A stretch of 64,000 nucleotides of DNA from assembly GCF_011045215.1 (NCBI RefSeq), contig NZ_CP049201.1, one strand, 5' to 3'. Within the stretch, counting starts at the first letter, position 1. Every line of letters starts with the position of its first letter. Below, piece by piece: positions 2,437 to 60,863 of this stretch. The DNA comes from Escherichia coli. GTDB taxonomy: Bacteria; Pseudomonadota; Gammaproteobacteria; Enterobacterales; Enterobacteriaceae. The position numbers were made by a program, and so were the translations under genes. Below the pieces are notes generated by a model, which was given only the letters and a program-made list of their open reading frames with translations, did not search any database and had not been told where the DNA came from.

Positions 2437-3771
2437 TTAATGTGCGTTAGACGCTGTTTGGTTATCCATTGAGTGGCTCTGGCGCTCGTGCATTTTGCGA
2501 GCGTAGAACATCAGGATAATCAGGCTGACGATGAAGGTACCTGCCAGCTCGAAGGAGCTTGCGCCCATCAGCGCGATGAAGCAGAACACGCAACCCAGTA
2601 CAGAGCAGATCAGGCTGACAAAGTTGCGGATGTTAACGCCTTCAAAACGAATCAGGTCAACGCAAGAGTAGAAGTACGGCAGCATAGTCAGCAGTACTGC
2701 GATACCGGTCAGTTCACCGAACAGGTCAGATGCTTTACCACCGGCAGAGTTCATCAGAGTGATGAGGATCATCAGGGCAGTCATTTTCACTGCAGCCAGC
2801 AGCAGACCTTTTTTCGGAATACCGTTGCTGTCGACTTCACCATAAACTTTCGGGAAGTTACCGTCGTTAGCGGCACGTACACCTGCCTGGCCTACCAACA
2901 TCATCCAGGAGCCCAGAGAAGTCAGGCACGCAAAGGCGGTGAATGCAGAAACCAGCGGCGCAGCCCAGTTACCGAGGATAGTTGAAGCACTGATTGCAAA
3001 CGGAGCACCGGAAGCCGCCATTACAGAAGACGGATACATACCGGAAAGCACCTGAGTCGCAGCGATGTAAACAATACCTGCTAAACCAGTACCCAGCATG
3101 GTTGCCAGCGGAACGGTACGTTTCGGGTTTTTAACCATACCAGTACTTACAGCTGCGGATTCAACACCCACGAAGGCCCACAGGCAGAGCAGAATACTTT
3201 TAATGATCGCATGACCATCAGTGGTATCCGCAGTATTCCAGTTAGCTGCATAAGTTGCCGCATCAAACCAATGCCAGCCAACAATAGCAGTCATCACCAC
3301 AGGAATAAGAACCAGCACCAGACCAATAGTGGTTAAACGGCTTACCCAGGTACCGCCGAGCATATTTACAAAGGTAAATACCCAGACGATAGCAATACAG
3401 GCGATACCCGCCGGAACAGGATCATTTAATACTGGGAAGAAGGTGGAAAGATAAGATACAGCGGTAATACCAATCGCCAGGTTACCAATCCAGTTAGCAT
3501 GGTAATAAAGAACACCTGTCTGAAAACCAAATGCAGGGGAAATTTCTCCGGCATAAGCAATTGGGCCACCTTGTTGCGGGTTTTTTGTTGCCAGTCGGGC
3601 ATATACATACGCCAGCGACATTGCACCAATAATAGAGATAATCCAACCCCAGATAGCAATACCACCGATACTTGCTAGGTTCGCAGGTAATAATGCAATA
3701 CCGCTCCCCATCATATTACCGGCAACAACACCGGTACAGGCAAATAGCCCGATCTTCTTGGCAGAACTCAT
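2437..3771 (-). CDS. cadB: lysine/cadaverine antiporter CadB
   Basis: 444-aa polytopic membrane protein (MSSAKKIGLFACTGVVAGNMMGSGIALLPANLA...), APC-family permease, directly upstream of cadA in the canonical cadBA arrangement. AGGAG RBS before the ATG. Confidence 0.93.
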   Translation of the reverse strand: MSSAKKIGLFACTGVVAGNMMGSGIALLPANLASIGGIAIWGWIISIIGAMSLAYVYARLATKNPQQGGPIAYAGEISPAFGFQTGVLYYHANWIGNLAIGITAVSYLSTFFPVLNDPVPAGIACIAIVWVFTFVNMLGGTWVSRLTTIGLVLVLIPVVMTAIVGWHWFDAATYAANWNTADTTDGHAIIKSILLCLWAFVGVESAAVSTGMVKNPKRTVPLATMLGTGLAGIVYIAATQVLSGMYPSSVMAASGAPFAISASTILGNWAAPLVSAFTAFACLTSLGSWMMLVGQAGVRAANDGNFPKVYGEVDSNGIPKKGLLLAAVKMTALMILITLMNSAGGKASDLFGELTGIAVLLTMLPYFYSCVDLIRFEGVNIRNFVSLICSVLGCVFCFIALMGASSFELAGTFIVSLIILMFYARKMHERQSHSMDNQTASNAH

Positions 3772-4136
3772 GCTCTTCTCCTAATTTCATTTTTGAATTT
3801 GGAGTCCGGGTCATGATGTATAACTATTTCCTGACCAGACCAAACTGGCGATAAGATTACTCACGAAAAAAGGATTAATCCTAAAGATTAGGTGAAATAA
3901 CACAAAAGTTTCTGTAAGTGAGAACTTGAGGTTTTTTATTAACACATCAGGATCGCAAGTTGATATCATGAAAAGATAAACATTCAATGTTTACAATGGA
4001 TTGCGTGACATTGTCTGGTTAAATTTATGTAATAAAAATTATGCGGCAAATAAATTGCCGCAACATATTATACCAACAGGAACATACAAAAACTCAACAA
4101 CAAATATTCCCTGGCATGAATCAACCCGGGAGTTAC
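3772..4136 (-). promoter_or_regulatory. cadBA promoter/operator region (expected CadC-binding sites)
   Basis: 365-bp AT-rich intergenic region between cadC and cadB. From established knowledge this interval carries Pcad and the CadC target sites; individual sites were not mapped here. Confidence 0.45.
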
Positions 4137-5675
4137 TTATTCTGAAGCGAGAAATTTGTCGAGATAAGGTACAACATAAGGAACAGAAGTCTGGAATATA
4201 CCATTTTCAATCCAGTAAAGGGTGTTTGCCCCTGGGCGTAAATTAAAGGCGGTGAGATATGCATCAGCTGCTTCCCGATTCATCCCCTTCATTTCATAAA
4301 CCTTGCCAAGCAATACATAATTTAGCCAGGACATTTCAAGATCAATGCCAGTATTTATCGCCTGGTAAGACTCATCTGTTTTACCTTTTACCAGAGCACT
4401 GACCGCTTTTATTTGATATATAATGGACAGGTTATTCAATTCCGGTAGTGTAACAATGTTATCTATTTCTGTGTTCAGTGCTGCTAATTGTTTTTCATCT
4501 AAAGGATGTTGAGAATGGCGCACGATATCAACTAATGCTTTTTCTGCTCTCGCGTAGGTAAATTCTGGAGATGATTGAACAATCTCACCTAATAATTCAC
4601 TGGCACGGTTCAATGATTTATCATCGCCATGCAGTAAATAATCATGTGCCTGATAAAAATTAGTTAATAACGCACCACGATGAGGCAAAATTTGCTGGAG
4701 CGTCTCCTGCATTCGTTGTGGCCACGGTTGGTTTAACGCTTTTGATAAACTCTCCAGTAAATCATTTTGAATCGCCAGCTGATTACCGTTAGTGATGACA
4801 TAACGTTTATCCAGCATGGTTGAACCATCTGCATTGTCTACCAATTTTATCGACATAAAGCATTGTTGAGCACGGTATTGGCGCTGATTAACAAACGCAA
4901 TAGATAATGTTTTACCGGAACTGCTCGGTTCATCAATGTTGTAGTTGATTTTGTCATGCACCATAAAGGTGGAGAAGGTGTTAAGTGATGTCGCCACCAA
5001 ATCACCCACGCCTATCGCGTAAGAGAGCTGATACGGGGAACTCCAGCTGTTACAACTTTTATTTACCATATTAATGTCAATATCGCGTGGATTGAGCAAA
5101 ATACGCGATTTGCTCATCGGAAGACGTGTATCAAGACTTGAAAACGCTACCAGTGCTACACAGATACCTAAGGACAACAGGAAAAAAAACCATACCCAAA
5201 AGGTAGTGAATCGTTTGCTTTTAACTGGGGATTGTTCAGGTGGCGTTGCGGTGTTTTGAATGTTAAGGCTGTGGGAGGGAGAATCTGTGGCAGGAACCGC
5301 CTCTGGTATAGGGGGAGGCGAAGATAGCATTATTTCCTCTCCCTCTTCTTCGCTGTACCAGATAACCGGCACCATTAATTTATAGCCGCGCTTTGGTACA
5401 GTAGCGATATAGACAGGACTATCTTCATCATTATCTTTTAATGACTTACGTAGTTCTGAGATACTCTGCGTCACAACGTGATTGGTGACAATACTTCTCT
5501 TCCAGACATTATCGATAAGTTCATCCCTGCTAAGTACTTCGCCACTGTGTTGAGCAAAGAAAACCAGAAGATCGATTAATCTCGGCTCAAGGGTAAGTTG
5601 ACGCCCATTGCGGCTAATTTGGTTTATGGACGGAGTAACAAGCCATTCGCCAACGCGAACTACAGGTTGTTGCAT
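4137..5675 (-). CDS. cadC: ToxR-like membrane-integrated transcriptional activator CadC
   Basis: 512-aa ORF with an N-terminal winged-helix DNA-binding region (MQQPVVRVGEWLVTPSINQISRNGRQLTLEPRLIDLL), a central TM segment (FWVWFFFLLSLGICVALVAF) and a periplasmic sensor domain; matches E. coli CadC. Confidence 0.93.
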   Translation of the reverse strand: MQQPVVRVGEWLVTPSINQISRNGRQLTLEPRLIDLLVFFAQHSGEVLSRDELIDNVWKRSIVTNHVVTQSISELRKSLKDNDEDSPVYIATVPKRGYKLMVPVIWYSEEEGEEIMLSSPPPIPEAVPATDSPSHSLNIQNTATPPEQSPVKSKRFTTFWVWFFFLLSLGICVALVAFSSLDTRLPMSKSRILLNPRDIDINMVNKSCNSWSSPYQLSYAIGVGDLVATSLNTFSTFMVHDKINYNIDEPSSSGKTLSIAFVNQRQYRAQQCFMSIKLVDNADGSTMLDKRYVITNGNQLAIQNDLLESLSKALNQPWPQRMQETLQQILPHRGALLTNFYQAHDYLLHGDDKSLNRASELLGEIVQSSPEFTYARAEKALVDIVRHSQHPLDEKQLAALNTEIDNIVTLPELNNLSIIYQIKAVSALVKGKTDESYQAINTGIDLEMSWLNYVLLGKVYEMKGMNREAADAYLTAFNLRPGANTLYWIENGIFQTSVPYVVPYLDKFLASE

Positions 5676-6254
5676 AATAGAAACTCATTCGAAAAGGGAA
5701 TGATGCAATGATAATTGCCACAACCTATTTTTACCATCTATAGATGGGTTTATTTACATATTATTGGTGAATGCAAGACGTTATTTTTACCAGCCATAAA
5801 CTTCTTGATTACATGGTATTAAGAAAGGATTTTACTGAGAACCAGAAGTAATATTCCTTACCATCAAAATTCATCATCTTTGCCAAAGAAAAATGTTCAG
5901 AAAATAATCCATGGAAAATTGTCCGGAGCGCTTACTATTTTAATGGATTGTTAGTCTTTGCATGAGCAAGCGGACTGATACATTTCTCTTTGTTCTCATT
6001 CAGAAAATCTCATCAGTCGCCGTTCAGACCGGTGTTGTGCTTTATGGATGCGTTACGCTCCTGATGACGTCATTTGACGTTCAACAGCATCACGGGGTCG
6101 CACGACATTTCACGTCAGTTAGTGCTATAGCTCAGGAACAAATTTTCCCGAATTGGGATATGCCCGCAAATTGCTGGTGATGTGGGGAGAATCTGGTTGA
6201 GTTCGGTAGAATTGATTTGGCGGCAGAACGCTTAAATCGTGGCGTCCTGAAACG

Positions 6255-6282
6255 AAAAACGGACCTCCGTGGAGGTCCGTTT
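6255..6282 (-). terminator. GC-rich hairpin immediately 3' of the tRNA-Phe remnant (likely pheU terminator)
   Basis: Perfect inverted repeat aaaaacGGACCTCCgtGGAGGTCCgttt; T/A runs on both sides so it could act bidirectionally. Confidence 0.6.
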
Positions 6283-6291
6283 ATATGAATT

Positions 6292-6340
6292 TGGTGCCCG
6301 GACTCGGAATCGAACCAAGGACACGGGGATTTTCAATCCC
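6292..6340 (-). repeat. pheU: 3' 49-nt fragment of tRNA-Phe (pheU-type); candidate attachment-site direct repeat at the island junction
   Basis: The reverse complement of TGGTGCCCGGACTCGGAATCGAACCAAGGACACGGGGATTTTCAATCCC equals the 3' 49 nt of E. coli tRNA-Phe including CCA. Identity stops abruptly at 6341 (the tRNA would continue CTGCTCT; the window has ATGGCAA). Not a functional tRNA. Confidence 0.8.
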
Positions 6341-6439
6341 ATGGCAATGAGCTTCTGATAATTAAGAGTTCGTCAAGTAGTTAAAAGAGTTTTTTCATGT
6401 GCATCCAGTCTCAACTTATAAATGAGAAGGATGTGCGTA

Positions 6440-7315
6440 ATGAACATTCTGCCCGTTGTGTCCACCAAAGGTGGCGAAGGAAAATCAACCCAGTCTGCTA
6501 ACCTTGCCGGTTTTCTGGCGGATGCCGGCCTCCGTACCCTGCTGATAGACGGAGACCATGCCCAGCCCACGGCAAGCAATATCTTTCCGCTGACGTATGA
6601 AGCGCCGGCCGGTCTTTTTGAATTACTGATGCGCACGGCTGACCTCAGTCATCCCGACAACATCATTTCCCGCACGGCTATCGACGGCCTTGACCTGATA
6701 GTCTCCAATGACCCCCATGAACAACTGAAAACGGCCATGCTTCATGCGCCGGATGGTCGTCTCCGTCTGCGTAATGTGCTCCAGCATCCGCTTTTCCAGA
6801 GCTATGACGTCATTGTGGTGGATTCACAGGGCGCGCGTTCCGTCATGCTGGAAATGATTGTGCTGTCTGCCACGGAGTCTGTGGTGGGGATGGTGAATCC
6901 GGTTCTGCCGGATGTGCGTGAGTTCATTCGCGGCACAGTCAATGTCATGGAAAACCTGTTGCCCTACCGTGAACTGGGTATCCCCCTGCCGAAAGTCCGC
7001 ACCCTGGTTAACTGCATGGATTATACGGCGCTGGCCAGACAAACACTGGCGGAGCTGACCGACATTATTAACTCCGGTCGCTACAGCAAAGTGCTTCCGG
7101 AAGGCGCGGTCACCCTGCTTTCAACACAGATTTATGACCTGAATATTTACAAACAGGGACACGCAGCCGGCCAGCCGGTGCACCGCCTTGAAAAAGCGTC
7201 TGCCCGTCGCAGTGATTCTGCGCTGGTCACCATGCACAGCCTGGCCTGTGAGTTGTTGCCGGAGTGGAGTGAGTTTTTTGATGTACTGCTGGAAAACGGA
7301 GGTGAAAGCCTGTGA
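6440..7315 (+). CDS. ParA/Soj-family partition ATPase
   Basis: Deviant Walker A KGGEGKST near the N-terminus (MNILPVVSTKGGEGKSTQSANLA), then LLIDGDHAQ. AAGGA RBS 9 nt before the ATG at 6440. First gene inside the island, as in soj-terminal ICEs. Confidence 0.85.
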   Translation: MNILPVVSTKGGEGKSTQSANLAGFLADAGLRTLLIDGDHAQPTASNIFPLTYEAPAGLFELLMRTADLSHPDNIISRTAIDGLDLIVSNDPHEQLKTAMLHAPDGRLRLRNVLQHPLFQSYDVIVVDSQGARSVMLEMIVLSATESVVGMVNPVLPDVREFIRGTVNVMENLLPYRELGIPLPKVRTLVNCMDYTALARQTLAELTDIINSGRYSKVLPEGAVTLLSTQIYDLNIYKQGHAAGQPVHRLEKASARRSDSALVTMHSLACELLPEWSEFFDVLLENGGESL

Positions 7316-7701
7316 ACAGAAAACTGATATGGCGTGCTGTGGCTTCAGCTTCAGTTTCCTGCCCCGGACACGATGAAGTGCATGTGTTTGTTGAGGCTGC
7401 AGATTACGAAGAAGCGAAAAAACATTTGTATGACCGTCTGGAGGAGGAATGGCAGCTTCCTGTGAGCCACATAACTTTCCACAACGTGTGGAATGAAAAC
7501 GAGCTATGTGAAATGTCTGCAGGTCCGAAGGTGCCTTCAGGCCTTCCCCTGCTTGAGTCGGGTGGGGGAAATGGTGAGGTCTTTTATGACCATAATCCGC
7601 TGCTCCTCATTGCTTCTCAGCGTCTCAGGGCTGTGATTGAAGGGGTGCTGAGTGTCCTGCCAGAGCGTGGTGAACAGGATGAGTGTGGTCGTGGAATTTA
7701 A
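7312..7701 (+). CDS. hypothetical protein (129 aa)
   Basis: ORF overlapping the parA stop (possible translational coupling). No recognisable motif. Confidence 0.4.
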   Translation: MNRKLIWRAVASASVSCPGHDEVHVFVEAADYEEAKKHLYDRLEEEWQLPVSHITFHNVWNENELCEMSAGPKVPSGLPLLESGGGNGEVFYDHNPLLLIASQRLRAVIEGVLSVLPERGEQDECGRGI

Positions 7702-8016: not shown

Positions 8017-8445
8017 TCAGCCTTTACCCGTGAACGGGTCATCCAGCTTATCCAGACGTCTTTCTGCGTTGCGCAACACGTCCTGTGCTCCCGGGGTGGA
8101 TGCATATGCCTCCAGTTCAGCAGCAAGAGCCTGTTCCATTTCTGTTGCTGTCATGGCAGCAACATCGGCCGCAGAGCGGTTGTCGCGAATAATGAGGTAG
8201 CTGTGCAGGATATTAAGTGGTGCCACATTTTTATTGATGTTTTTCAGCCCCTGCTGAACCGCCAGCCAGTCGCCCAGCCACTGCAGGCGATACAGTTTGT
8301 GACGGTTGTAAGTTTCATTCGTTGTGTTACAGGCCATACGCCAGAACTCCTCAGACATGTTGATGAGCGTATTTTCACCTTCCGGCAGACTGAACGCAGC
8401 GAAGTCATCAATGCCGGACGGCAGTTGTTGATGATTTGTATTCAT
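8017..8445 (-). CDS. hypothetical protein (142 aa); first of three paralogous leaders MNT..QLPSGID
   Basis: AAGGA RBS 6-7 nt upstream. Its first 12 codons lie inside the repeated ~200-bp module. The overlapping plus-strand ORF 7897..8649 has no RBS and looks like an antisense artefact. Confidence 0.45.
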   Translation of the reverse strand: MNTNHQQLPSGIDDFAAFSLPEGENTLINMSEEFWRMACNTTNETYNRHKLYRLQWLGDWLAVQQGLKNINKNVAPLNILHSYLIIRDNRSAADVAAMTATEMEQALAAELEAYASTPGAQDVLRNAERRLDKLDDPFTGKG

Positions 8446-8649
8446 GTTTTTTCCTTACTAAGTCAGAGTGTTATGAATATAAAGATGCTGTCCGTACCTT
8501 CTGACCGGGGTCGCCAAACTTGCCGGTCTGAAAACGTACAGACAGTTACCGGGATTTTACTCCCGACAGCTGTACGTCCGGCACCCTTTTTTCTTTTTTT
8601 ACATAGTCCGGTTTCTGGCCCTGTGGGTCGGTATACCTGTTCCCGTTAA
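8446..8649. repeat. copy A of a ~200-bp repeated divergent-promoter module
   Basis: Near-identical to 9440-9660 and 10561-10750. Conserved core tgctgtccgtaccttctgaccgggg..ccggtctgaaaacgtacagacagttaccgggatttta.tcccgacagctgtacgtccggcaccc with internal inverted repeats (CTGTCCGTAC/GTACrGACAG; ACAGCTGT). Confidence 0.8.
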
Positions 8650-9165: not shown

Positions 9166-9439
9166 GCGCAAACTTAACGGCTTCCGGAATGCTGATGAAG
9201 CCATCATCCCGGAAAAACCAGTGGCGGCTGTGAATCAGCCAGTGTCTGAGCCAGCAGAGTCGGTAGGCGAGCTTATGGTCTGCGCCGGGAAAGATTTCAG
9301 TTCCCTGGTCAAAGAAGGTTTTACAACGTTCCACATCGTCGGGGGCCATGCGTCCGGCTTTCCAGTCTTCAAAGTATTTTTCATTGCTGTCAGTGACATA
9401 AGGACAGTTGTTATCAATGCCGGACGGCAGTTGTTTTTC
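8996..9439 (-). pseudogene. paralog of the MNT..QLPSGID leader gene with ATG replaced by ATA at the conserved start
   Basis: Conserved RBS AAAGGAG is followed by ATAAATACAGAAAAACAACTGCCGTCCGGCATTGAT (INTEKQLPSGID) where copies A and C have ATG. The reading frame stays open to 8996; an internal ATG at 9349 may still give a 117-aa product. Confidence 0.3.
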
Positions 9440-9675
9440 TGTATTTATAAAAATTCTCCTTTAAAACAATCTGTTATGAGTATGCGAATGCTGTCCGTAC
9501 CTTCTGACCGGGGTTGCCAGACTTGCCGGTCTGAAAACGTACAGACAGTTACCGGGATTTTATTCCCGACAGCTGTACGTCCGGCACCCTTTTTCCTTTT
9601 TTTACACAGCCAGGTTTCCGGTTATCTGCGGGGAAGTGACGCACCTGGCGGGCTGAGAGATATGGAGGTGAAAGT
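9420..9675. repeat. copy B of the ~200-bp repeated divergent-promoter module
   Basis: Direct alignment with copies A and C (seen in sequence). Confidence 0.8.
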
Positions 9676-10413
9676 ATGTCTTCCTCAGTGAAATATTCTC
9701 CGGTTCCGGCGGTCTTAACCCGCCCTGAATCGCTGGCTGAACTGAACCTGCTGATGACCCGGATTGCCAGTGGGTGTCGTGTGGGGCTTCCGGCGTCAGG
9801 TCGTCCGGTCATTGCGGTGCACGGTGGTTATGTTTCATACAGTTCTCCACGCACCGGACATGTTTTTCAGGACGGTTTCCGCCCGGAGACAGTGATGACC
9901 GTCAGTAACCGGGAACGGATGTGTGAATGGTTCAGTCAGGTCTGGCTTCCGTTGCATCTGGCTGCCCTTGAAGGCGATGAGAACGCTTTTTTCAGTGCGG
10001 AGGTCAACATGGTGCGCCGGGAGCTGCAGCGCGTTCCGGGGGATTCAGTGAACTGCATGTGCTGGGCAAGCCTTGCTGCACTGGCATTTGATGCTGAAGA
10101 GCGGGTGGAACGGCAGAAAGGCAATAATGAGAACATCGCAACATATGATGAGAGCATCGCGACATATGCATTCCGTGCTGCCTGCACTGTGAGTCGCTGT
10201 CTGAGCCGGAATGCTTCCGGAGGTATTCCGCGCTCATACCCTGAATGGAAAGCGATTTTGTTTCCCCGTGATGGTGCTGACATTTTCCCCGACGGGTGGC
10301 TGGAAAATATGACCCGTCGGGCTGAACGTGTTTTTACGAGTGCGAAACGTCAGTGTGGAATGCTCTCAGCCAGTCAGGCAGCGCTTTTTTCTCAACGTGT
10401 TGAAACGGAGTAA
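9676..10413 (+). CDS. hypothetical protein (245 aa)
   Basis: Strong RBS (GGAGGTGaaagtATG). Downstream of repeat copy B. Confidence 0.5.
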   Translation: MSSSVKYSPVPAVLTRPESLAELNLLMTRIASGCRVGLPASGRPVIAVHGGYVSYSSPRTGHVFQDGFRPETVMTVSNRERMCEWFSQVWLPLHLAALEGDENAFFSAEVNMVRRELQRVPGDSVNCMCWASLAALAFDAEERVERQKGNNENIATYDESIATYAFRAACTVSRCLSRNASGGIPRSYPEWKAILFPRDGADIFPDGWLENMTRRAERVFTSAKRQCGMLSASQAALFSQRVETE

Positions 10414-10564
10414 AAGGATGAGCCGATTCAATACAGTTCGGGGGAAAGGGGTTACAGAGCCCGTCTTTTTCCGTCATGACCTTTCCGTTACTCAACAGCC
10501 AGAACTGCAGGGGGTATTTCACTTCAGATTCAATGCCGGACGGCAGTTGTTTTTCTGTATTCAT
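10334..10564 (-). CDS. hypothetical small protein (76 aa), third MNTEKQLPSGIE paralog
   Basis: RBS AAAGGA and conserved N-terminal codons inside repeat copy C. Its 3' end overlaps the plus-strand gene 9676..10413 by 80 bp, so one of the two calls may be wrong. Confidence 0.3.
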   Translation of the reverse strand: MNTEKQLPSGIESEVKYPLQFWLLSNGKVMTEKDGLCNPFPPNCIESAHPFTPFQHVEKKALPDWLRAFHTDVSHS

Positions 10565-10760
10565 AAATTTTTTCCTTTAAAACAACTTGTTATGAATGAA
10601 CGAATGCTGTCCGTATCTTCTGACCGGGGGCGGCAAACTCACCGGTCTGAAAACGTACGGACAGTTACCGGGATTTTATTCCCGACAACTGTACGTCCGG
10701 CACCCTTTTTCCTTTTTTCACATAGCCAGGTTTCCGGCAGTCAGAGGGGGAGGGGACACC
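10545..10760. repeat. copy C of the ~200-bp repeated divergent-promoter module
   Basis: Direct alignment with copies A and B; lies immediately upstream of the helicase gene. Confidence 0.8.
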
Positions 10761-12128
10761 ATGGCTGAAATGTCTGTTCTCTGTGCATACGAAGCAGAGC
10801 AGGCCGTTCTGGGCGGTCTGATGCTGGAGAATGAACGCTGGGATGAAGTGGTGCTGATGCTGAGTCCTGACGATTTTTATGTGGCTCCGCACCGGGTCAT
10901 TTTTCGTGCCATGTCTGAACTGGCGGTGAATGGCCAGCCTCTGGACCTGATTACACTGTCAGAACTCCTGGAACATCAGGGCAGGCTGGACGTACTGGGC
11001 GGTTTTGCTTATCTGGCAGAGCTCAGCAAGAACACACCTTCTGCGGCCAACATCATGGCCTATGCAGGCATTGTGGTGGAGAAAAGCGTTCTGCGTCAGT
11101 TACAGGCCACCGGAAACACCCTGATTGCTGATGTGGCGGCACCGAACGCCACATCACGGGACGTGCTGGATACTGCAGAGCGGCGTCTGTTTGCTCTTGC
11201 GCAGAACAGGACGCTCCGGGAGCGCACGGAAGCCTCTCTTTCATCCGCGCTCGATACCGTTCTGCAGCAACTGGAAAGTGTGCTCGGTTCCGGCGGTGTG
11301 ACCGGTACCCCCACGGGATTTGACTGTCTGGATGAAATGACCTGTGGCCTGCAGCCAGGTGACCTGGTCCTGCTGGCTGCCCGTCCGTCAATGGGGAAAA
11401 CCTCTCTGGCACTGTCCATGTGTCTCAGTGCCGCCCTGCGGCGGACGGAAGAGAGCGTTCTGGTATTCAGCATCGAGATGCCGAAGGAGCAACTGATTCT
11501 GCGCATGCTTTCCATGCTGGGACGTGTGGAACTGAATCATCTGCGCAGTGGCAACATGGATGATGAGGACTGGACGAGGGTGTCATCTGCGGTTGGCATG
11601 GCGCTGGGTGACGGAGGCATGGATGCGCTGGGTGAGCGCCTGATAATTGATGACTGCAGCCAGCAGACACCGTCATCGCTGCGTGCCAGTGCCCGCCGTT
11701 ATACCCGCCTGTACGGTAAACCCGCTCTGATTATGGTGGATTATCTGCAGCTGATTCGTGCGCCGGAGCTGGAGAACCGCACCCAGGAAATTGCTGAAAT
11801 TTCCCGTTCCCTGAAAGCGCTGGGGAAGGAGCTGGGATGTCCGGTGCTGGCCCTCTCCCAGCTTAATCGTCAGGTGGAACAGCGTGCAGATAAACGCCCC
11901 AATAACGGTGACCTGCGTGATTCCGGGGCACTGGAGCAGGATGCTGACCTGATTATGTTTATTTACCGCGACGAGGTCTATAACCCCGATTCACTGGCAA
12001 AGGGGGAGGCTGAAATTATTGTCAGCAAGCAGCGTCAGGGGCCCACAGGCACGGTGCGGGTCAGGTTCGACGGTCGTTACACACTGTTTACGCCCTCTGA
12101 AAATGACGGACAGGGAGGATATGCGTGA
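10761..12128 (+). CDS. DnaB-like replicative DNA helicase (ICE-encoded)
   Basis: DnaB N-terminal signature (MAEMSVLCAYEAEQAVLGGLMLENERWDEV...), RecA-like core with Walker A AARPSMGKTSLALS and Walker B LIMVDYLQL. GGGAGG RBS. The ORF-track start at 10596 lies inside the repeat and is unlikely. Confidence 0.85.
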   Translation: MAEMSVLCAYEAEQAVLGGLMLENERWDEVVLMLSPDDFYVAPHRVIFRAMSELAVNGQPLDLITLSELLEHQGRLDVLGGFAYLAELSKNTPSAANIMAYAGIVVEKSVLRQLQATGNTLIADVAAPNATSRDVLDTAERRLFALAQNRTLRERTEASLSSALDTVLQQLESVLGSGGVTGTPTGFDCLDEMTCGLQPGDLVLLAARPSMGKTSLALSMCLSAALRRTEESVLVFSIEMPKEQLILRMLSMLGRVELNHLRSGNMDDEDWTRVSSAVGMALGDGGMDALGERLIIDDCSQQTPSSLRASARRYTRLYGKPALIMVDYLQLIRAPELENRTQEIAEISRSLKALGKELGCPVLALSQLNRQVEQRADKRPNNGDLRDSGALEQDADLIMFIYRDEVYNPDSLAKGEAEIIVSKQRQGPTGTVRVRFDGRYTLFTPSENDGQGGYA

Positions 12129-13804
12129 TGGCACACAAACCACTGAATCTCGGGGCTGCCATTATGCAGCCCGGTCGTCAGGCCAGTGCCGCCGGTAATG
12201 TGGTGGCGCTGGGGGAAACCCCCATGATTCTGACGCTGGACCAGTTGCGTCCGAATCCGGATAACCCGCGCACCACGCGCAATCCGCGTTATGACGACAT
12301 CAAAAACTCCATTCACGCCCGCGGGCTGGATACAGTGCCCAAAGTCACCCGTATGCCGGACAGTGAGCCGGATGTGTATATCTTCAGTGACGGGGGAAAC
12401 ACCCGTTACCAGATACTGACGGAACTCTGGAAAGAAACGGGGGACCCGCGTTTTTACCGTATTCATGTGCTGTTCAAACCCTGGCCGGGACGGCTTCAGT
12501 GTGTGATTGGTCATCTGGCGGAAAATGAAGTTCGCGGTGAACTGACCTTTATTGAGAAGGCACAGGGCATTCACAAGGCAAGACAAATTCATGAGGAACA
12601 ACTCGGCAGAAAAGTTTCCCTTCGTGAACTGGCGGATTTGTTAACCCATGAAGGGTTGCCGGTACACAACTCCACGATCAGCAGAATGGAGGATGCCCTG
12701 AAATATCTGTACCCCTGGATCCCCGACCTGATGGAGTCAGGACTGGGGCGACATCAGATTACGGCACTGCTGGCACTTCGTCAGGACGCAGAGCGTGTCT
12801 GGGGACAGTTTGCGCTGACGTCCGGCACGGACGCGGAATTTGACCGCGTGTTCGGGGAAAGCTGCCGGAAGTTTAATTCGCCGGAGCTGTGGTCACTGGA
12901 GATGTTTCGGGATGAGCTGATTGGAGATTTGTTGCAGGCGCTGCCACATCCCTCCCTGGACTATGACCGGTGGCTGTTGGAGCTGGATCCGAAAGAGCGG
13001 AACCGTCGTCACCATTTTGGTGAGCCGGAACCGGTGGTGGTACCGCCGTCAGTCCGTGACAGTGGCACAGGGCAGTCCGGTGCACCGGTATCCCGTATCC
13101 GGCCGGAGGTACCGGAAATCTCTGCCCCTGATACTGAGCCCGGACAGCATGATGTTGCCCGACCGGAGAACGCTGTTTCTGACACAGGCCTCACTGAAAA
13201 ATGCGGGTTTCCTTCCCCGGAGGAGACTGCAGACAGAGCGCCTTCTTCTGCCGGGAAAGTCCGGCGTTCAGAGATGCAGCCGGATATGTACGGCGGTGAG
13301 CCGGTCTTCAGCGGTGATGCTGTGGACGCGGGGATTGCCGGGGCCGCTGTGCCATCCGTTATGACCGGCGATACAGTGCCGTCCGGAACACCTGATGTAC
13401 TTCCCGTGTCTGTGACGCATTTTGCTGAAGGACGGGATGATATCGAGCATCTGCAGAATGAGGCCTTCCGGCTGGCATGGGAACTGGCTGAATCTGCCGG
13501 CTGTGCTGAAGAAATTGCCATGGACAGAGAAAGTGACCTGTCGGCTGGTTTCGGGACTGCAGAGGAGAAATGTTCGCCGGTGACGGCATTTCTGATGGGG
13601 CTGACCGGCGATGCGCCGCTGACAGTGTCTCCCGTCAGTCTGACAGACCTGCTGACAGGCGGCAGTGCGCCGGAAGCATGGCCACTGCTGGATGATGAAC
13701 ATGCCGTGAAGCTGCTGCGTCTTCTGAGTGTGCTGCGCCGTCTGCGCGCCCTGCAGCGCAGTGTGTTACCCGAAGATGATGAGGAGGATGAAAGTGATGA
13801 GTGA
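12128..13804 (+). CDS. ParB-like nuclease-domain protein with long low-complexity C-terminus
   Basis: N-terminal ParB/Srx-like region (LDQLRPNPDNPRTTRNPRYDDIKNSI...DGGNTRYQIL). Start overlaps the helicase stop (ATGA), suggesting coupling. Confidence 0.75.
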   Translation: MAHKPLNLGAAIMQPGRQASAAGNVVALGETPMILTLDQLRPNPDNPRTTRNPRYDDIKNSIHARGLDTVPKVTRMPDSEPDVYIFSDGGNTRYQILTELWKETGDPRFYRIHVLFKPWPGRLQCVIGHLAENEVRGELTFIEKAQGIHKARQIHEEQLGRKVSLRELADLLTHEGLPVHNSTISRMEDALKYLYPWIPDLMESGLGRHQITALLALRQDAERVWGQFALTSGTDAEFDRVFGESCRKFNSPELWSLEMFRDELIGDLLQALPHPSLDYDRWLLELDPKERNRRHHFGEPEPVVVPPSVRDSGTGQSGAPVSRIRPEVPEISAPDTEPGQHDVARPENAVSDTGLTEKCGFPSPEETADRAPSSAGKVRRSEMQPDMYGGEPVFSGDAVDAGIAGAAVPSVMTGDTVPSGTPDVLPVSVTHFAEGRDDIEHLQNEAFRLAWELAESAGCAEEIAMDRESDLSAGFGTAEEKCSPVTAFLMGLTGDAPLTVSPVSLTDLLTGGSAPEAWPLLDDEHAVKLLRLLSVLRRLRALQRSVLPEDDEEDESDE

Positions 13805-16134: not shown

Positions 16135-16237
16135 TCGAAAGTGTTCAGCCAGCCCCCTGCATCCAGCAGGGGGCTGTAATAAGCATTTTTGTACCGGATA
16201 AAAAGCGGCGATATTGCCGCTACTGAATGAGGTGATT

Positions 16238-17482
16238 ATGGCGTTACCTGCGGAAAGCCTGATTGCGTATACCCTGGAAAAAATGAAGCACCGTATGACC
16301 ACCGGAGCCCGGAAGGAGGAGGGGCGAATACGCAGCGGACTGTTGTTCACCGGCAATGTGCACGATGCCATTCCGCGTCGTCTGTTGCTGGATACGCGTC
16401 TTTCACCGCTGGACAAGATGGCATGGATGATGATCCGGCTGTATGCGCAGAATAATGAGGGGGCCATTTTTCCTACTTACGATGAACTGCAACTGCAGCT
16501 GGCATCGCCGGGAAAGGGAAAAGCTTCCAGAGAAACCGTCAGCCGGGTATTGCTGATGTTGCGGATCACGGGCTGGCTGAGCCTGTGTAAACGGGTACGT
16601 GATGATAAAGGCCGGGTTCGGGGAAACATTTACGCCCAGCATGACGAGCCCCTGACGTTCTGCGATGCAGAGGCGATGGATCCGCGTTATCTGGATATAG
16701 TGGCAGAAGCCTGTATGAGCCGGAACCGGACCATCAGTCAGACGGCACGGGATATTCTTTGTGAAATAAAAAATGATCCGGGAATGCGTCACTATCACAG
16801 CCATATCAGTCAGCTGGAAGCCCGGATAGGAAGTGCCCAGACACCGGGGCAGATGGCTGCCCGTCAGCGGGTGACAGAGGACAGAATGCGGCCGGGTTCG
16901 GAAACCGAACCAGTGGTGAGAACACTGAGTTCGGCACCGGAAAAGCTGAGTTCGGAAACCGAACCGGGTAAAAAAATGGGGCAAAAAAGACAGAGTTCGG
17001 ATCCCGAACCATCAGGAAAATCAGCAGGTTATCACAGAGTCCGGGAACCGAACCATTACGTACGTAATATCACACACAGTGTGATTAAAAACACGTACGT
17101 ACTGCCGGCGTCGCTGACGGGGCAAATCAGGGAGGAAGATGCCATCATGCTGACTAGTCAGTTGCAGGCGTTGCCGGAAGCGCTGGCACAGGGGGTGCTG
17201 GAAAGCCTGTCAGGGATGCTGGGCAGTCAGTCACTGCAGAACCCGGTGGGCTGGCTGCTTGCAGTGCTGAAGCGTGCCCGGGAGGGAAATTTTTATCCAC
17301 CGAAACAGAAACAGCGCGTCGCTGCATCAGCCACCATACAGGCGGGAGCGGGAGGGCGCACCACTTCGCAGCCTGTTGTCACCCGGAAACGTACAGAACC
17401 CATTTCAGCAGAACGTCTGAGTGGCATTGTGGCAGGACTACGGGCCTCCCTTCGCAACCGTCCTGCGATGAGAGCCCGGTGA
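16238..17482 (+). CDS. putative ICE replication-initiation-associated protein (414 aa)
   Basis: GAGGTG RBS. Large conserved ORF immediately upstream of the iteron array; basic Gly/Ser/Pro-rich C-terminal half. Function inferred from synteny. Confidence 0.5.
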   Translation: MALPAESLIAYTLEKMKHRMTTGARKEEGRIRSGLLFTGNVHDAIPRRLLLDTRLSPLDKMAWMMIRLYAQNNEGAIFPTYDELQLQLASPGKGKASRETVSRVLLMLRITGWLSLCKRVRDDKGRVRGNIYAQHDEPLTFCDAEAMDPRYLDIVAEACMSRNRTISQTARDILCEIKNDPGMRHYHSHISQLEARIGSAQTPGQMAARQRVTEDRMRPGSETEPVVRTLSSAPEKLSSETEPGKKMGQKRQSSDPEPSGKSAGYHRVREPNHYVRNITHSVIKNTYVLPASLTGQIREEDAIMLTSQLQALPEALAQGVLESLSGMLGSQSLQNPVGWLLAVLKRAREGNFYPPKQKQRVAASATIQAGAGGRTTSQPVVTRKRTEPISAERLSGIVAGLRASLRNRPAMRAR

Positions 17483-19974: not shown

Positions 19975-21984
19975 ATGCAACTTTACTTGTGTGAAAAACC
20001 GTCACAGGCGCGGGATATTGCCCGGGTGCTGGGGCTCAGCGGGCGGGGAGAGGGCTGTATTGAAGGTGATACTGTCACGGTCACCTGGGCTGTGGGGCAT
20101 CTGCTGGAGCTGGCCGCCCCGGAAGCGTACGGGGAACAGTTCGGGGTTCCCTGGCGTATGGAGTCGCTTCCCGTTCTGCCTGAAAAGTGGCAGATGACGG
20201 TTAAACCGCAGACGAAATCCCAGTTTACGGTGATCAGCCGCCTGCTGAAGCGTGCGTCTGAAGTGGTGATTGCCACGGATGCGGACAGGGAAGGAGAAGT
20301 CATCGCCCGGGAACTGCTGACGTACTGCCGGTACCGGGGGCCAGTCCGTCGGCTGTGGCTGTCTGCCCTGGATGAGGCCAGCGTCCGGGAGGCGCTGGCA
20401 AATATTCTGCCCGGTGAGCAGACGGCCCGTCTGTATGATGCCGGCCTGGCCCGTGGTCAGGCTGACTGGCTGATCGGGATGAACCTGACGCGTCTGTATA
20501 CCCTTAAGGCCCGGGCGTCGGGGATCCAGGATGTGTTGTCCGTCGGAAGGGTACAGACGCCGACACTTGCCATGGTGGTCAGACGGGATCAGGAGATTGC
20601 CGGTTTTGTGCCACGCCCCTGGTGGCAGGTGTTTGTCGGGCTGGAGAAAGACGGGATCCGGTTCCGGGTCGTCTGGGTGGCGGCAGAGCAGTACTGCGAT
20701 GAAGAGAAACGGTGCGTGAACGTTCAGGCGGCCCGGGCTGTTCTTCAGTTGTGTCAGCAGACACCGTCAGCGGTGGTGCATGAGGTGACCCGGAAGTGTG
20801 AAAAAACACCGGCTCCGCTCTGTTTTTCGCTGGGTACACTGCAGGAGGCCTGCTCCCGGAAATTTGGTATGGGAGCGCAGACTGTGCTGAATATCGCGCA
20901 GTCCCTGTATGAGACGCACAAAGCCACGACGTATCCCCGGACGGACTGTGGCTATCTGCCTGAATCCATGCAACAGGAAAGCCGGGAGGTACTGGCGGCG
21001 ATGGCGCGTTCAGACCCGGCCCTGACGCCGGTTCTGGCACAGCTCGATCCCGGTTTTGTTTCACGTATCTGGAATGACAAAAAGATTACGGCACACCATG
21101 CCATTATTCCGACCCGGCAGGTCTTTGATATCAGGGCACTGAGTGAAGATGAACTGAAGGTGTATCAGCTTATCCGCCAGCATTATCTGGCCCAGTTTCT
21201 GCCCCTGCAGGAGTCTGATATTACTGATGCAACACTGACACTCGGCGGGCAACGGTTCAGGGCCCGCGGGAAAGTGAATGTGGTGACGGGCTGGCGAAGC
21301 CTGTTTTCCGGGGAGGCTGCAGAAGTTGCTGAAGGTGAAGATGAACAGACGACGGAAATGGCGTTGCCGGCGCTTGAACGGGGAGAGCACTGCCGGATTA
21401 GCGGTTCAGAACTGAAGGACCGGATGACGTCACCTCCGGCACCTTTTACGGAAGGAACCCTGATTGCCGCCATGAAGAATGCTGCCAGTCAGGTCAGCGA
21501 CCCGAAGCTGAAAAAAGTGCTGCGGGAGAATGCCGGTCTGGGGACGGAGGCCACGCGGGCCGGTGTGCTGGAGGTGTTATTTGCCCGGCAGTATCTGGAG
21601 AAGAGCGGGAAGCATATCCGGTCAACGCAACGGGGCAGGGAACTGACGGCCGCCCTGCCGGAAGCCCTGACCAGTCCGGGCATGACGGCGCTGTGGGAGC
21701 AGGCTCTGGATGATATTGCACAGGGCAGAATGTCACTGGATACCTTTATGGGCAGACAGCAGCAGTGGGTGCGTCATCTGGTCTCATCCGGGCGGGAACA
21801 GCCCTTCAGTATGACGGTTCCGGTGACGCCGCCGTGCCCGCTTTGTCAGGGGCCGACCCGGCAGCGAAAGGGAAAGCACGGACTGTTCCGGAGCTGTCAG
21901 CGGTATCCTGAGTGTAAGGGCGTGGTGAACACGCAGAAAAAGGCCGGGCGACGAAAAAACGCGGGAAAAACTAAAACGGAGTAA
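19975..21984 (+). CDS. topB: DNA topoisomerase III (TopB-like)
   Basis: TOPRIM N-terminus (MQLYLCEKPSQARDIARVLGL...VVIATDADREGEVIAREL), type IA core, C-terminal zinc-ribbon cysteines (CPLCQG...CQRYPEC). Confidence 0.9.
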   Translation: MQLYLCEKPSQARDIARVLGLSGRGEGCIEGDTVTVTWAVGHLLELAAPEAYGEQFGVPWRMESLPVLPEKWQMTVKPQTKSQFTVISRLLKRASEVVIATDADREGEVIARELLTYCRYRGPVRRLWLSALDEASVREALANILPGEQTARLYDAGLARGQADWLIGMNLTRLYTLKARASGIQDVLSVGRVQTPTLAMVVRRDQEIAGFVPRPWWQVFVGLEKDGIRFRVVWVAAEQYCDEEKRCVNVQAARAVLQLCQQTPSAVVHEVTRKCEKTPAPLCFSLGTLQEACSRKFGMGAQTVLNIAQSLYETHKATTYPRTDCGYLPESMQQESREVLAAMARSDPALTPVLAQLDPGFVSRIWNDKKITAHHAIIPTRQVFDIRALSEDELKVYQLIRQHYLAQFLPLQESDITDATLTLGGQRFRARGKVNVVTGWRSLFSGEAAEVAEGEDEQTTEMALPALERGEHCRISGSELKDRMTSPPAPFTEGTLIAAMKNAASQVSDPKLKKVLRENAGLGTEATRAGVLEVLFARQYLEKSGKHIRSTQRGRELTAALPEALTSPGMTALWEQALDDIAQGRMSLDTFMGRQQQWVRHLVSSGREQPFSMTVPVTPPCPLCQGPTRQRKGKHGLFRSCQRYPECKGVVNTQKKAGRRKNAGKTKTE

Positions 21985-22248: not shown

Positions 22249-22312
22249 TTCCGGGTTGACTTTCCATGGATGTGTTTTAAAAATAACCGGGCTTATTTGC
22301 TGCATCTGCAGC

Positions 22313-22496
22313 CAGCCAATGTTTCAGCAGTCTGAGAGAAACGCCTTCGGGTGACTGCCAGCCAACGTTTCACCGGCCTGAGAGAAACACCTTCGGGTGG
22401 CCGGAATATCCTCGTAGCCTGAAAGAGGATGCCTGTGGGCGGTACATCCGTTTAACCTCTGGAAACGGATATCACTGTTCAGTGATTGAGGTCTTT
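22313..22496 (+). ncRNA. structured repeat element R1 (two pseudoknot-like units plus terminal hairpin domain); candidate sRNA or single-strand structural element
   Basis: Units CCAGCCAAyGTTTCa-stem-TGAGAGAAACrCCTTCGGGTG-stem, then ..GGTACATCCGTTTAACCTCTGGAAACGGATATCACTGTTCAGTGATTGAGGTC followed by TTTTT. Homologous to R2 and R3 with compensatory stem changes. Confidence 0.45.
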
Positions 22497-52772: not shown

Positions 52773-52914
52773 ATAATTAATTTGTATCTACAGAATATTA
52801 ATGCTCAGGCTGGTTAACCCCGGCCTTTTTATTTTATATACAGACGTTCCTGTGAGACTATTGACATATAAAAGCCCGTCTTGCTAATCTTTTCCCGCTT
52901 TAATGTCGCTGTAT

Positions 52915-53101
52915 GCGACCATCCAAATCCCCAGTAGTCTGAGAGGGGAGCCTTCGGGCGGCTACCAGCCAATGCTTTAACGATCTGAGAGAAGCGCCTT
53001 CGGGTGATCGTAATGTTCTCGTAGCCTGGAAGAGAACGCCTTACGTGGCGGTACATCCGTTTAACCTCTGGGAACGGATATCACGGAACCGTGATTGAGG
53101 T
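52915..53101 (+). ncRNA. structured repeat element R2 (homolog of R1 and R3)
   Basis: Same unit architecture as R1 with compensatory stem substitutions (TCCCC/GGGGA in place of GTTTC/GAAAC; ACGATC/GATCGT in place of GCAGTC/GACTGC) and the conserved 3' domain GGTACATCCGTTTAACCTCTGGGAACGGATATCACGGAACCGTGATTGAGGTC. Confidence 0.45.
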
Positions 53102-53763
53102 CGTGCTGGCCTGAGGCCAGTTGTTCTATGCAGGCATCCTGCAGATGCCATGATTCTTTACTTACAGGCTTATCACGCCTGCATATCAATACGTTAAGTC
53201 TTTCAGAGACATGTCTGAACGAACTGACGTCTTTAATCTGTTCGGGCATTCGCCCCGGGCTTCTTACGACTGTACGCACTGCATAAGGCCATCTGAAATC
53301 TGGCCGCTTGCGTGCGTATGTGGAGTTTGAAGCTGCGCGGCGTCACTTTTGTCGGCGTGTAACGATGACAAAGTGACGCATGCGCGTCTGCTTTACGAAC
53401 CCGCACAAACCGTCGCGTCACGGGATGTTTTTTAACATTTGAAGAAGTGACCAGACGTGAGAGTGTTTTTTCAACCTTCTCTGCAAACGTACAGACGATA
53501 CCGTGAATAACGTTCATCGACCGTTCTTCTTGCAGAATTTTATTGTTTTTTAAGGAGTTTTATGTAGTGAGATGCCGAACCGGCGATACCACTTATTAGG
53601 GGTGGTATCGGGGGCGACCTGGAAACAGGTACAGCGAATGCTGCAGTCGGTGTGCAACACCGGTTTGTTACCCCTCAATACCTAAACAGTCTGCGCTACC
53701 CTGGCGCTCAGGCACTCATTACCCGAAGGATCGCAACGCTTAACCGTGTCGCCAGGGAGAATG

Positions 53764-53850: not shown

Positions 53851-54753
53851 GTGTCCAGACGTGAAAAATTACTGAAACAGGATTTGGTTGCTCATATCCG
53901 GAAAGACCGGGGGAGTTTCAAGAAGCTGAGTGACTATTCCCGGATCATGCACCGGTTTGCGGAAAGACTGGCTAAACTGAATATACAGATCAGTTCTGCT
54001 GCGCAGGTAAAAGTGCGGCATATTGAATTATATATGAACAGCAGGAGTGATGTTTCAAAGCGAACCAGAGAAAATGAAATGTCTGCAATACGGGTTATGT
54101 TACGTCAGGCCGGTAAACATAAAATGGCAGATCCTGAACATCCCCGTCTCAGCAATAAGGCGTTAGGTATTTCAGGAGGAAGCCGTAAAGGGACAAAGAA
54201 ATTAATTACGGATGAGCGTTTCCGGGAAATTCTTCAGCGCGTGGAAGCAAAAGATAAAGGGGTGGCAGCTGTTGTTAAACTGTCACGTTATCTCGGTCTG
54301 AGAAATGAAGAAGCTGTCCAGTCGGCCAAATCGTTACGGACGTGGAAAAAAGCGTTACAACGGGGAGATGAAAAAATAAGGGTGATTTTTGGTACGAAAG
54401 GGGGACGGGAAAGAATGACGACGGTTGTTGACCGGGATAAAGTTCTTGATGCTGTTAATTACGCACTCAAATATGCCAGTGAGCATAATGAACGTCTGAT
54501 AGACAGAGATAATCTTAAGTCGGCAATGGATTATTATCTTAATACGTTACGACGTTATGGAGAACTGAAAGGCGGAGATGAAACCGCACACAGTTTTCGG
54601 TACAGTTACGCCGCAAGTGCCATGAAATATCATATTATGAATGGTTACAGTTATAAGGAGGCACTTGCACTGACATCAATTGATCTTGGTCATGGTGATG
54701 GCAGAGGTCGATATATTGAACAGGTTTATTGTCAGTTATTAGGCTATGAGTAA
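53851..54753 (+). CDS. tyrosine site-specific recombinase (phage-integrase/Xer-like catalytic domain)
   Basis: GTG start with GAGGAGG RBS. Catalytic-domain boxes: LSRYLGLRNEEAVQ (box I Arg), HSFRYSYAASAM (H-x-x-R), GHGDGRGRYIEQVY (catalytic Tyr). Confidence 0.65.
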   Translation: MSRREKLLKQDLVAHIRKDRGSFKKLSDYSRIMHRFAERLAKLNIQISSAAQVKVRHIELYMNSRSDVSKRTRENEMSAIRVMLRQAGKHKMADPEHPRLSNKALGISGGSRKGTKKLITDERFREILQRVEAKDKGVAAVVKLSRYLGLRNEEAVQSAKSLRTWKKALQRGDEKIRVIFGTKGGRERMTTVVDRDKVLDAVNYALKYASEHNERLIDRDNLKSAMDYYLNTLRRYGELKGGDETAHSFRYSYAASAMKYHIMNGYSYKEALALTSIDLGHGDGRGRYIEQVYCQLLGYE

Positions 54754-55109: not shown

Positions 55110-55157
55110 CTTGACATCCATCTTTTGTGCCTTAAAAATATACAGGCTAACTTTGTT

Positions 55158-55414
55158 ACCTTCGGGTGACCATCCAATGTTTCGGTAGTCTGAGAGAAAC
55201 GCCTTCGGGTGACTACAGTTATCTTCGGATAACCATCCAAATCCCCGGTAGTCTGAGAGGGGAGCCTTCGGGCGACTACCAGCCAATGCTTTGACGATCT
55301 GAGAAAAGCGCCTTCGGGTGATCGTAATGTCTCCGTAGCCTGAAAGGGGACGCCTTAGAGGGTGGTACATCCGTTTAACCTCTGGAAACGGATATCACGG
55401 AACAGTGATCGAGG
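55158..55414 (+). ncRNA. structured repeat element R3 (three units plus terminal domain)
   Basis: Largest copy: a partial unit, then GTAGTC/GACTAC, GGTAGTC/GACTACC and ACGATC/GATCGT units, and the conserved 3' domain ending ..GATCGAGGTC followed by TTTTAT. Confidence 0.45.
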
Positions 55415-59811: not shown

Positions 59812-60504
59812 ATGGCCACCTTTATCGACCATCAGAAGGCCTTCATTTCGCTGTTTAATCAGACCGCCCGTTATCACAAACGCCATAAGGTGTTTGAAGA
59901 CTTTGTCAGCTGCAGTGTGATTGCCCTGGAGAACCGGCTTCAGTTCAGTGAGGCACGGGAGCAGAAGTACCTGCGAATCGTCAGTGGTTATGAAAAGCAG
60001 GATGTTATCAACATGGCGCATTTGCTTGCTCATGTCATTGAGGGACTGGAGCAGGGATTCTGTGACTTTCTGGGCAGCGTGTTCATGCAACTGGAGCTGG
60101 GGGATAAATACCGGGGCCAGTTTTTCACGCCCTGGAGTGTGGCCAGAATGATGGCACAGATGCAGCTGGGGAATGTGACGACGCTGTTTGAGAACAAGCC
60201 CTTTATCACGCTCCGTGAACCGGCCTGTGGTGCCGGCAGTATGATACTGGCTATGGCTGACACCCTGAACCATTCGGGATATCCGGCATATCGCAGGATG
60301 TGGGTGTCGGCAACGGATATTGACCCGCTGGCAGCCGGCATGGCGTATATACAACTGTCGCTGTGTGGTGTGGCCGGTGAAGTGGTGATTGGCAACTCAT
60401 TGTGTAATGAGCGACGCCGGGTACTGCTGACGCCCGGGCATTACCTCGGGAACTGGTCATATCGTCTGCGTCATTCTCAGGAACAGGTCACAGCTGATGC
60501 CTGA
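59812..60504 (+). CDS. short methyltransferase-like protein: HsdM-type SAM-binding motif without the NPPF/Y catalytic motif
   Basis: REPACGAGSMILA (motif I-like) and ..ATDIDPLAAGMAYIQLSLCGVAGEVVIGNSL, but the ORF ends about 30 aa later and is followed by a clean terminator. Confidence 0.45.
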   Translation: MATFIDHQKAFISLFNQTARYHKRHKVFEDFVSCSVIALENRLQFSEAREQKYLRIVSGYEKQDVINMAHLLAHVIEGLEQGFCDFLGSVFMQLELGDKYRGQFFTPWSVARMMAQMQLGNVTTLFENKPFITLREPACGAGSMILAMADTLNHSGYPAYRRMWVSATDIDPLAAGMAYIQLSLCGVAGEVVIGNSLCNERRRVLLTPGHYLGNWSYRLRHSQEQVTADA

Positions 60505-60517
60505 TTTTTTATCACTA

Positions 60518-60549
60518 CGCCAGTCTTCGGGCTGGCGTTATTATATTTG
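60518..60549 (+). terminator. rho-independent terminator
   Basis: CGCCAGtcttcgggCTGGCG followed by TTATTATATTTG. Confidence 0.6.
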
Positions 60550-60863
60550 CGTTGCTTGTTATTGGGGGCGGTTTCTATGTACGTCAGGAGCATTTTTAAA
60601 CCGATGTGGATAAGTAACTGATTGATTCATCGTGATCAGCTATCGCTTCTAAGTTATTGCTTTTCTCTTATCGCATTTAGGTTATCTCATGTCCCTAAAG
60701 GTCTGCCAAACACCGTATAGCGTGGGAGTACACCCTACCGCGATAACGTAACCGTACAATATTGTACGTTTCCCAAACGCAGCTCTGTGGGGGAAATTTG
60801 GGTTAAGTATCGACCGGTGTATGATAGGGCAATATTTAACCAGAGAAATTAAAAGGATTTGTT

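Follow-up and report, generated by a model that had tools for sequence, protein, structure and literature searches.

ICEEc2 was reportedly described by Roche et al. in 2010, from E. coli BEN374, as an element of the pKLC102/PAGI-2 family. It belongs to the pKLC102/PAGI-2/SPI-7 family of ICEs (PMC6761156, PMC8138268), with the two tRNA-Phe genes of E. coli, pheU and pheV, as its insertion hotspots (PMC11537424). Integration into tRNA-Phe is shared by ICEEc2 and ICEKp2, and the latter carries two integrase genes, only one of which is needed for excision (PMC6761156). PAPI-1, ICESb2 and ICEEc2 are all listed under IntKX, a group of 'simple' Xer-related recombinases (Smyshlyaev et al., PMC8138268). 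In Salmonella enterica serovar Typhi, SPI-7 is flanked by direct repeats, with a complete pheU on one side and a partial copy on the other, and its excision is precise (PMC4100779). Here, we examined a 64,000-nt stretch of E. coli DNA (hereafter 'the window', always the whole stretch) in which chromosomal sequence beside cadC gives way, at a 49-nt fragment of tRNA-Phe, to the genes of a conjugative element. We put the probability that this fragment is the attR of an integrated ICE of the pKLC102/PAGI-2/SPI-7 (ICEEc2) family at roughly 92%.

The chromosomal side and the tRNA-Phe fragment

Left of the junction, minus-strand ORFs of 728, 444 and 512 aa correspond to cadA, cadB and cadC by the annotation of relatives. 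BLAST aligned window positions 2740-6343 collinearly with cadB-cadC-yjdQ-pheU of K-12 at 99.25% identity, and the 619 nt left of the fragment differ from K-12 by just six mismatches, with no gaps. The features on this side are as follows.

4137-5675, minus strand: cadC (512 aa), the last chromosomal gene before the junction; collinear with K-12 and with the annotated cadC of relatives
5676-6256, no strand assigned: native spacer between cadC and pheU, the upstream region of cadC; also present in strains without the ICE
About 5934-6093, minus strand: yjdQ-type relic of a P4-like integrase; a pseudogene in K-12, cM8a and RM13745, with coordinates mapped via alignment
6257-6282, minus strand: intrinsic terminator hairpin of pheU; 11-pair stem with 6 GC pairs and the tail TTCGTTT, identical in K-12
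6292-6340, minus strand: putative attR core, the 3' 49 nt of tRNA-Phe; 49/49 to K-12 pheU and unique in the window

The initial annotation described the DNA before the fragment as native sequence downstream of cadC. Collinearity with K-12 upholds the first half of that description but not the second: cadC lies on the minus strand with its start codon pointing toward the spacer, and positions 5676-6291 are therefore upstream of the gene; 'downstream' is right for the order of coordinates only. The terminator hairpin that had been reported beside the tRNA fragment is indeed there, on the minus strand (6282-6257), and its position directly 3' of the tRNA end identifies it as the terminator of pheU itself.

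The fragment at window positions 6292-6340 reads TGGTGCCCGGACTCGGAATCGAACCAAGGACACGGGGATTTTCAATCCC and is identical at 49 of 49 positions to the plus strand of K-12 MG1655 pheU, starting from the CCA end. In RNA sense, which is that of the minus strand, it comprises positions 28-76 of the 76-nt tRNA-Phe(GAA), from G28 to CCA76 when numbered on the printed sequence, and contains the anticodon stem-loop except its first base, the variable loop, the T arm, the 3' acceptor strand and CCA. Position 6341 is A in the window against C in the tRNA gene, and identity is gone from there on; the claim that exactly the 3' 49 nt of tRNA-Phe are present, with identity ending at 6341, was thus accurate to the base. 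Chance was ruled out as the origin of this match by a shuffled-sequence control, in which the 49-mer found matches in 0 of 100 shuffles. Even with up to three mismatches allowed, the 49-mer occurs a single time in the 64-kb window; no second copy was found within it, and ARAGORN, run over the whole window, returned no tRNA gene. Two traits of an attR are therefore present at this locus, namely a copy of the 3' part of a tRNA gene lacking the 5' part, and collinearity with the empty site up to the repeat with foreign DNA directly after it.

The spacer had also been regarded as native chromosome, a view that agrees with its collinearity with K-12 but has to accommodate the degraded P4-like integrase pseudogene inside it. 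RefSeq labels this relic in cM8a and RM13745 as a frameshifted, N-terminally truncated tyrosine recombinase, and in a tblastn search with an intact P4-like integrase, residues 359-391 matched window positions 6011-6094 on the minus strand (E=4e-4), in a reading frame broken by a stop codon. The relic sits between the pheU terminator and cadC, and it is a scar of an older island at pheU; as ICE-free K-12 has it too, an island of another class must have made use of pheU before. The proximity of the relic, 200 nt from the fragment, and the fact that phe tRNA genes are also targets of P4-type islands (PMC11537424) raise the idea that the fragment is a leftover repeat of the yjdQ island and that the ICE merely lies beside it. 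We consider this extremely improbable, because the repeats of P4-type islands at pheV measure 19-23 bp rather than 49 (PMC11537424), and because the 49-nt fragment accompanies the ParA end of related elements at other loci and in other genera where there is no yjdQ spacer. An origin from the yjdQ island was rejected on the evidence of K-12, which has the relic plus a whole pheU and no extra fragment; the relic therefore did not create the fragment.

Gene content of the element right of the fragment

K-12 lacks the DNA that starts at position 6341, and the ICE extends from there to beyond position 64,000. Its features within the window are listed below.

6341-6439, plus strand: ICE-side spacer between the core and parA ('variant A'); not in K-12, shared with cM8a
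6341-60543, plus strand: ICE backbone; NCBIfam matches above curated cut-offs, collinear with the RM13745 ICE at 87-98% identity
6440-7315, plus strand: parA (Soj-like partition ATPase, 291 aa), the first ICE gene; NCBIfam ParA-type matches
10596-12128, plus strand: dnaB-PI, the SPI-7-type island DnaB helicase; NF040583, 689.6 bits (cut-off 655)
12125-13804, plus strand: parB, PFGI-1-type; TIGR03764, 379 bits (cut-off 143.75)
16214-17482, plus strand: STY4528-family replication protein; NF040582, 404.6 bits (cut-off 130)
19975-21984, plus strand: topB, topoisomerase III; 858.6 bits (cut-off 597)
29493-32130, plus strand: IS21-family insertion, 2.6 kb; alignment gap against RM13745, IstA-like transposase NF033546 (E=1.7e-85)
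32768-34975, plus strand: traD coupling protein; TIGR03754, 1090 bits
41071-43899, plus strand: traC-like conjugative ATPase, PFL_4706-type; TIGR03744, 1395 bits
49165-50754, plus strand: TraG N-terminal-domain protein
53851-54753, plus strand: internal integrase-family gene; PF12834 + PF12835 (Pfam Integrase_1 + Phage_int_SAM_2), E=1.6e-53 and 9.3e-23
60544-64000, plus strand: start of the variable cargo zone, with the ICE running on past the window end; homology to relatives ends at 60543
60864-63527 and on to 64000, plus strand: cargo; a protein of 741 aa whose C-terminal domain is an M23 peptidase, and an ORF of 145 aa

NCBIfam matches for ParA at 6440-7315 bear out the earlier statement that ParA is the first gene of the ICE DNA. 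Its ORF spans 6422-7315 (297 aa), with the start that agrees with database gene calls at 6440, 99 nt past the 49-nt core at the tRNA-distal end of the element. The exact 291-aa protein was found in 766 blocks of the public collection, representing hundreds of assemblies, and the 297-aa version had no exact match in that collection. The intervening stretch (6341-6439) is a probable attP-derived arm and a probable promoter of parA. Further along, DnaB-PI, ParB, the STY4528-family protein and TopB make up an island-type replication and maintenance module, to which an ssb gene would be added going by collinearity with the annotated RM13745 element. Conjugation genes of the GI type (MPF-G) were found in the window, and the TIGR03749, TIGR03752 and TIGR03755 proteins each score above their NCBIfam cut-off. 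By this gene content, the element is predicted to be an ICE of the pKLC102/PAGI-2/SPI-7 family, of the E. coli lineage ICEEc2.

Two further observations concern the backbone. Within the parA-dnaB module are three direct repeats of about 223 nt (8411-8633, 9414-9636 and 10530-10752), 75-88% identical, spaced by about 1 kb and each close to where a small ORF begins. Separately, a 17.8-kb 'plasmid' record of E. coli AH19B041 (NZ_CP196319.1) consists mostly of ICE backbone matching the window at about 45.9-60.4 kb, from the TraG N-domain protein through the methylase-like gene, and could be either an assembly artefact or a real sub-circle.

The integrase-family gene at 53851-54753 is internal rather than at an end of the element, and relatives have an 'integrase domain-containing protein' annotated at the same place. 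It comes in addition to the terminal recombinase that is expected past the window and, judging from ICEKp2, probably does not encode the enzyme responsible for excision. Grouped around this gene and after topB are RNA motifs scoring above the Rfam gathering scores, three of them STAXI (86-135 bits; 22298-22448, 52904-53057 and 55154-55279) and one EFASI (55 bits; 53564-53721), all on the plus strand.

This copy of the element has been altered in two places. The IS21-family element, with an IstA-like ORF of 555 aa, is absent from RM13745 and splits the hypothetical gene that directly precedes traD; through polarity, the insertion may impair conjugation and transfer of this copy. The second departure from RM13745 comes after the methylase-like gene, where relatives have variable cargo. 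A small plasmid of E. coli EC14 (5.9 kb, encoding Rop) contains a stretch with 93% identity to this cargo. Outside the window, the exact 741-aa protein was found only in one 3.3-kb Logan contig (one SRA assembly), and neither the M23-peptidase cargo nor the IS21 element was seen in related complete genomes. Together with the 145-aa ORF, the M23 protein is possibly a bacteriocin-like toxin/immunity pair from a small plasmid. Despite the ColE1-like look of this region, Rfam at a permissive threshold found no plasmid-origin RNA at 60400-64000.

The far end and the fragment in related elements

A search of 5,426 complete E. coli genomes for a single match over at least 80% of window positions 5676-7400 found the same cadC-spacer-fragment-ParA junction in 27 of them, with a best identity over the junction of 98.4%. 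All nine of the closest junction-sharing records (cM8a, UMNK88, ETEC1749, RM11911, RM13745, RM13752 and three of strain 8178) have the gene of a 330-aa tyrosine recombinase at the other end, together with dicD and an intact tRNA-Phe, 56-70 kb from the junction and on the expected side and in the expected orientation. The RM13745 element starts at the cadC-fragment-ParA junction, measures 64.4 kb and ends with genes for a UvrD-like helicase, a TraI-domain protein and a tyrosine recombinase of 330 aa, next to a minus-strand intact tRNA-Phe, past which dicD, dsbD and cutA follow as in K-12. Exactly the same 49 bp form the direct repeat at both of its ends; at its attL, the element-side flank reads '...gatgtaagg' and the tRNA goes on '...ctgctctacc'. 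The terminal recombinase has a PF00589 catalytic domain (E=2e-18), a weak SAM-like N-domain and no arm-binding domain, a domain composition that fits the IntKX group. Empty sites are found in K-12 and most E. coli. A synthetic attP, built from the integrase end, the core and the parA end, found no place covering at least 80% of it either among the 5,426 complete E. coli genomes or among PLSDB plasmids, so a circular or tandem form left no trace in silico. A rare circle would not normally be present in assemblies, and the result weighs neither for nor against activity of the element.

The window element is collinear with that of RM13745 from 6341 to 60543, at 87-98% identity and one IS21 insertion apart. 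The point matching 60543 lies 11.4 kb from the tRNA in RM13745, so the end of the window element is expected beyond position 64,000. The three terminal genes (UvrD-like, TraI and recombinase) alone take up about 4.3 kb, and the cargo zone of NC101 is much longer. A 45-nt tag taken at the window end had no match in two contig collections, genome_contigs and metagenome_contigs.

Beyond the cadC junction, ten loci returned with the exact 291-aa ParA are at most 97.5% identical to the window. At six of them (L005, L008 and L010-L013) the left flank is not cadC, and still the same 49 nt precede the element, with homology to the window beginning at 6288 or 6292, at the fragment or 4 nt before it. 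Most related elements have an identical fragment at their ParA end, and two of the loci show small changes in it. Scanning the truncated end in one genome per species gave six loci, of which the sixth was too short to contain the gene. The other five (L017-L021, from Superficieibacter sp., Citrobacter braakii, Kluyvera georgiana, Pantoea sp. and a Pluralibacter MAG) have the 49-nt fragment about 90-100 nt ahead of a ParA homologue of 56-65% identity, the Pantoea copy of the fragment with small changes. Because the point of truncation is the same across species, the G28 boundary is a family trait and not an accident of this genome. From these comparisons, the att boundary is conserved across Enterobacterales, and the fragment is a part of the ICE and not of the locus.

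Variation was also seen on both sides of the boundary. At 9861-9909 of the cadC-flanked locus L014, the attR fragment lacks one C of the acceptor-stem run, a 1-nt deletion which shows that the fragment, unlike the intact gene, is free to decay. The core and parA are separated by either of two unrelated spacers of about 100 nt with an identical ParA, variant A in the window and cM8a and variant B in L005-L014 (9910-10000), which suggests modular exchange of the att-adjacent arm.

The comparison with relatives also bears on the completeness of this copy. An ICE could have made the fragment and then lost its far end through deletion, rearrangement or separation by further islands, leaving an orphan junction with no usable partner. 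Three points are compatible with such a history: the far end is not inside the window; F2_407_2_2 and W13-16 have a recombinase-pheU-dicD end and are not among the cadC-ParA junction matches listed, which suggests that rearrangement of such elements can happen; and this copy has already been altered by an IS21 insertion and an unusual plasmid-like cargo. We nevertheless regard it as quite improbable, given that the far end is canonical in nine of the nine closest junction-sharing records, that the backbone is collinear, one IS apart, up to the usual cargo site, and that the fragment is free of mutations, unlike the decayed copies found at other loci such as L014. It is likewise unlikely, if somewhat less so, that this copy is an unsequenced variant of the ICEEc2 family whose non-canonical far end is fused to further islands or stranded without an integrase, and which captured a small-plasmid bacteriocin-like M23-peptidase module as cargo. 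If true, such a variant would show two recombinase classes using one tRNA gene, IntKX at the anticodon arm and P4-like at the 3' tip.

The reading of the fragment as the attR of an integrated ICE is carried by the exact fragment, the break against the empty site and the ICE gene content, all observed in the window, and by the two-ended structure observed in close relatives. Going by those relatives, the far end of this copy would be the canonical one. The initial annotation had taken the fragment to be the distal repeat of an element at the 3' end of pheU, and this is substantiated by the break from K-12 at the end of the fragment and by the ICE with ParA that follows. Its conclusion that the fragment fixes the orientation also stands, with the ParA end as the tRNA-distal attR and the integrase end as attL.

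Integration model and comparison with known systems

In the mechanism that we propose, the circular element would have an attP containing a copy of tRNA-Phe positions 28-76, and a short Xer-like tyrosine recombinase of the IntKX group, coded at the opposite end, would join this attP with the 3' part of pheU. Because the identity block begins at G28, the crossover would most likely lie in or next to the anticodon stem-loop. Identity blocks running from the anticodon stem to the 3' end are said, after Williams in 2002, to indicate crossover in or near the anticodon loop, with the two halves of the stem acting as inverted core binding sites. Integration would duplicate the 49 bp. One copy would complete an intact pheU, with its 3' part supplied by the element, beside the integrase (attL, past the window). 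The other would be the displaced, promoter-less 3' part, left by the original terminator of pheU on the cadC side (attR, 6292-6340) and followed by the parA end. Excision would reverse integration, and this copy is presumably still competent for it; both SPI-7 (PMC4100779) and ICEKp2 (PMC6761156) have been shown to excise with precision.

The junction provides a precise left boundary (6340/6341) and an orientation for a conjugative element of more than about 60 kb. For annotation, everything from parA rightwards can be treated as mobile DNA, and cadCBA as core chromosome. The feature is the usual attR of an ICE family that is already known, at a hotspot that is known as well; it holds no new biology, because the same architecture has been described for ICEEc2, SPI-7 and ICEKp2 and is found in 27 complete E. 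coli genomes.

P4-like islands at pheV and pheU (GI-pheV, LEE, SHI-2/3 and PAI types) use the same tRNA targets and also leave a partial tRNA as a distal repeat (PMC11537424). Their repeats are 19-23 bp at the extreme 3' end of the tRNA, with a P4-type integrase of 400 aa or more directly after the tRNA, whereas the repeat in the window is 49 bp and extends into the anticodon stem, and of the P4-like gene no more than a relic of about 160 nt with a stop is left. The marks of a P4-like island are thus lacking at this junction. ICEKp2 of Klebsiella pneumoniae and PAPI-1 and pKLC102 of Pseudomonas aeruginosa follow the same plan as the window element, with a partition gene at one end, an integrase by the tRNA at the other, and direct repeats; the two integrases of ICEKp2 parallel the internal integrase-like gene at 53851-54753. 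The two Pseudomonas elements differ in that they target tRNA-Lys, and the cargo of this group is unrelated to that of the window. The likeness to SPI-7 extends to names, since NCBIfam calls the helicase and the replication protein of the window after SPI-7 and STY4528. SPI-7 has a repeat of about 52 bp; it differs in belonging to another species, in its size of 133.5 kb and in its cargo of Vi capsule, SopE phage and pilus. ICEEc2, which inserts into a phe tRNA gene (pheU/pheV) and has an IntKX integrase (PMC11537424, PMC6761156, PMC8138268), has the same family of mobility genes, and is matched by the window in the gene families of its backbone. The ICEs of RM13745, UMNK88, cM8a, ETEC1749 and 8178 share with the window the same junction (97-98%), the order of the backbone and the recombinase-pheU-dicD end, and differ from it in the cargo after the methylase-like gene, in having no IS21 at this position and in a backbone of 87-98% identity.
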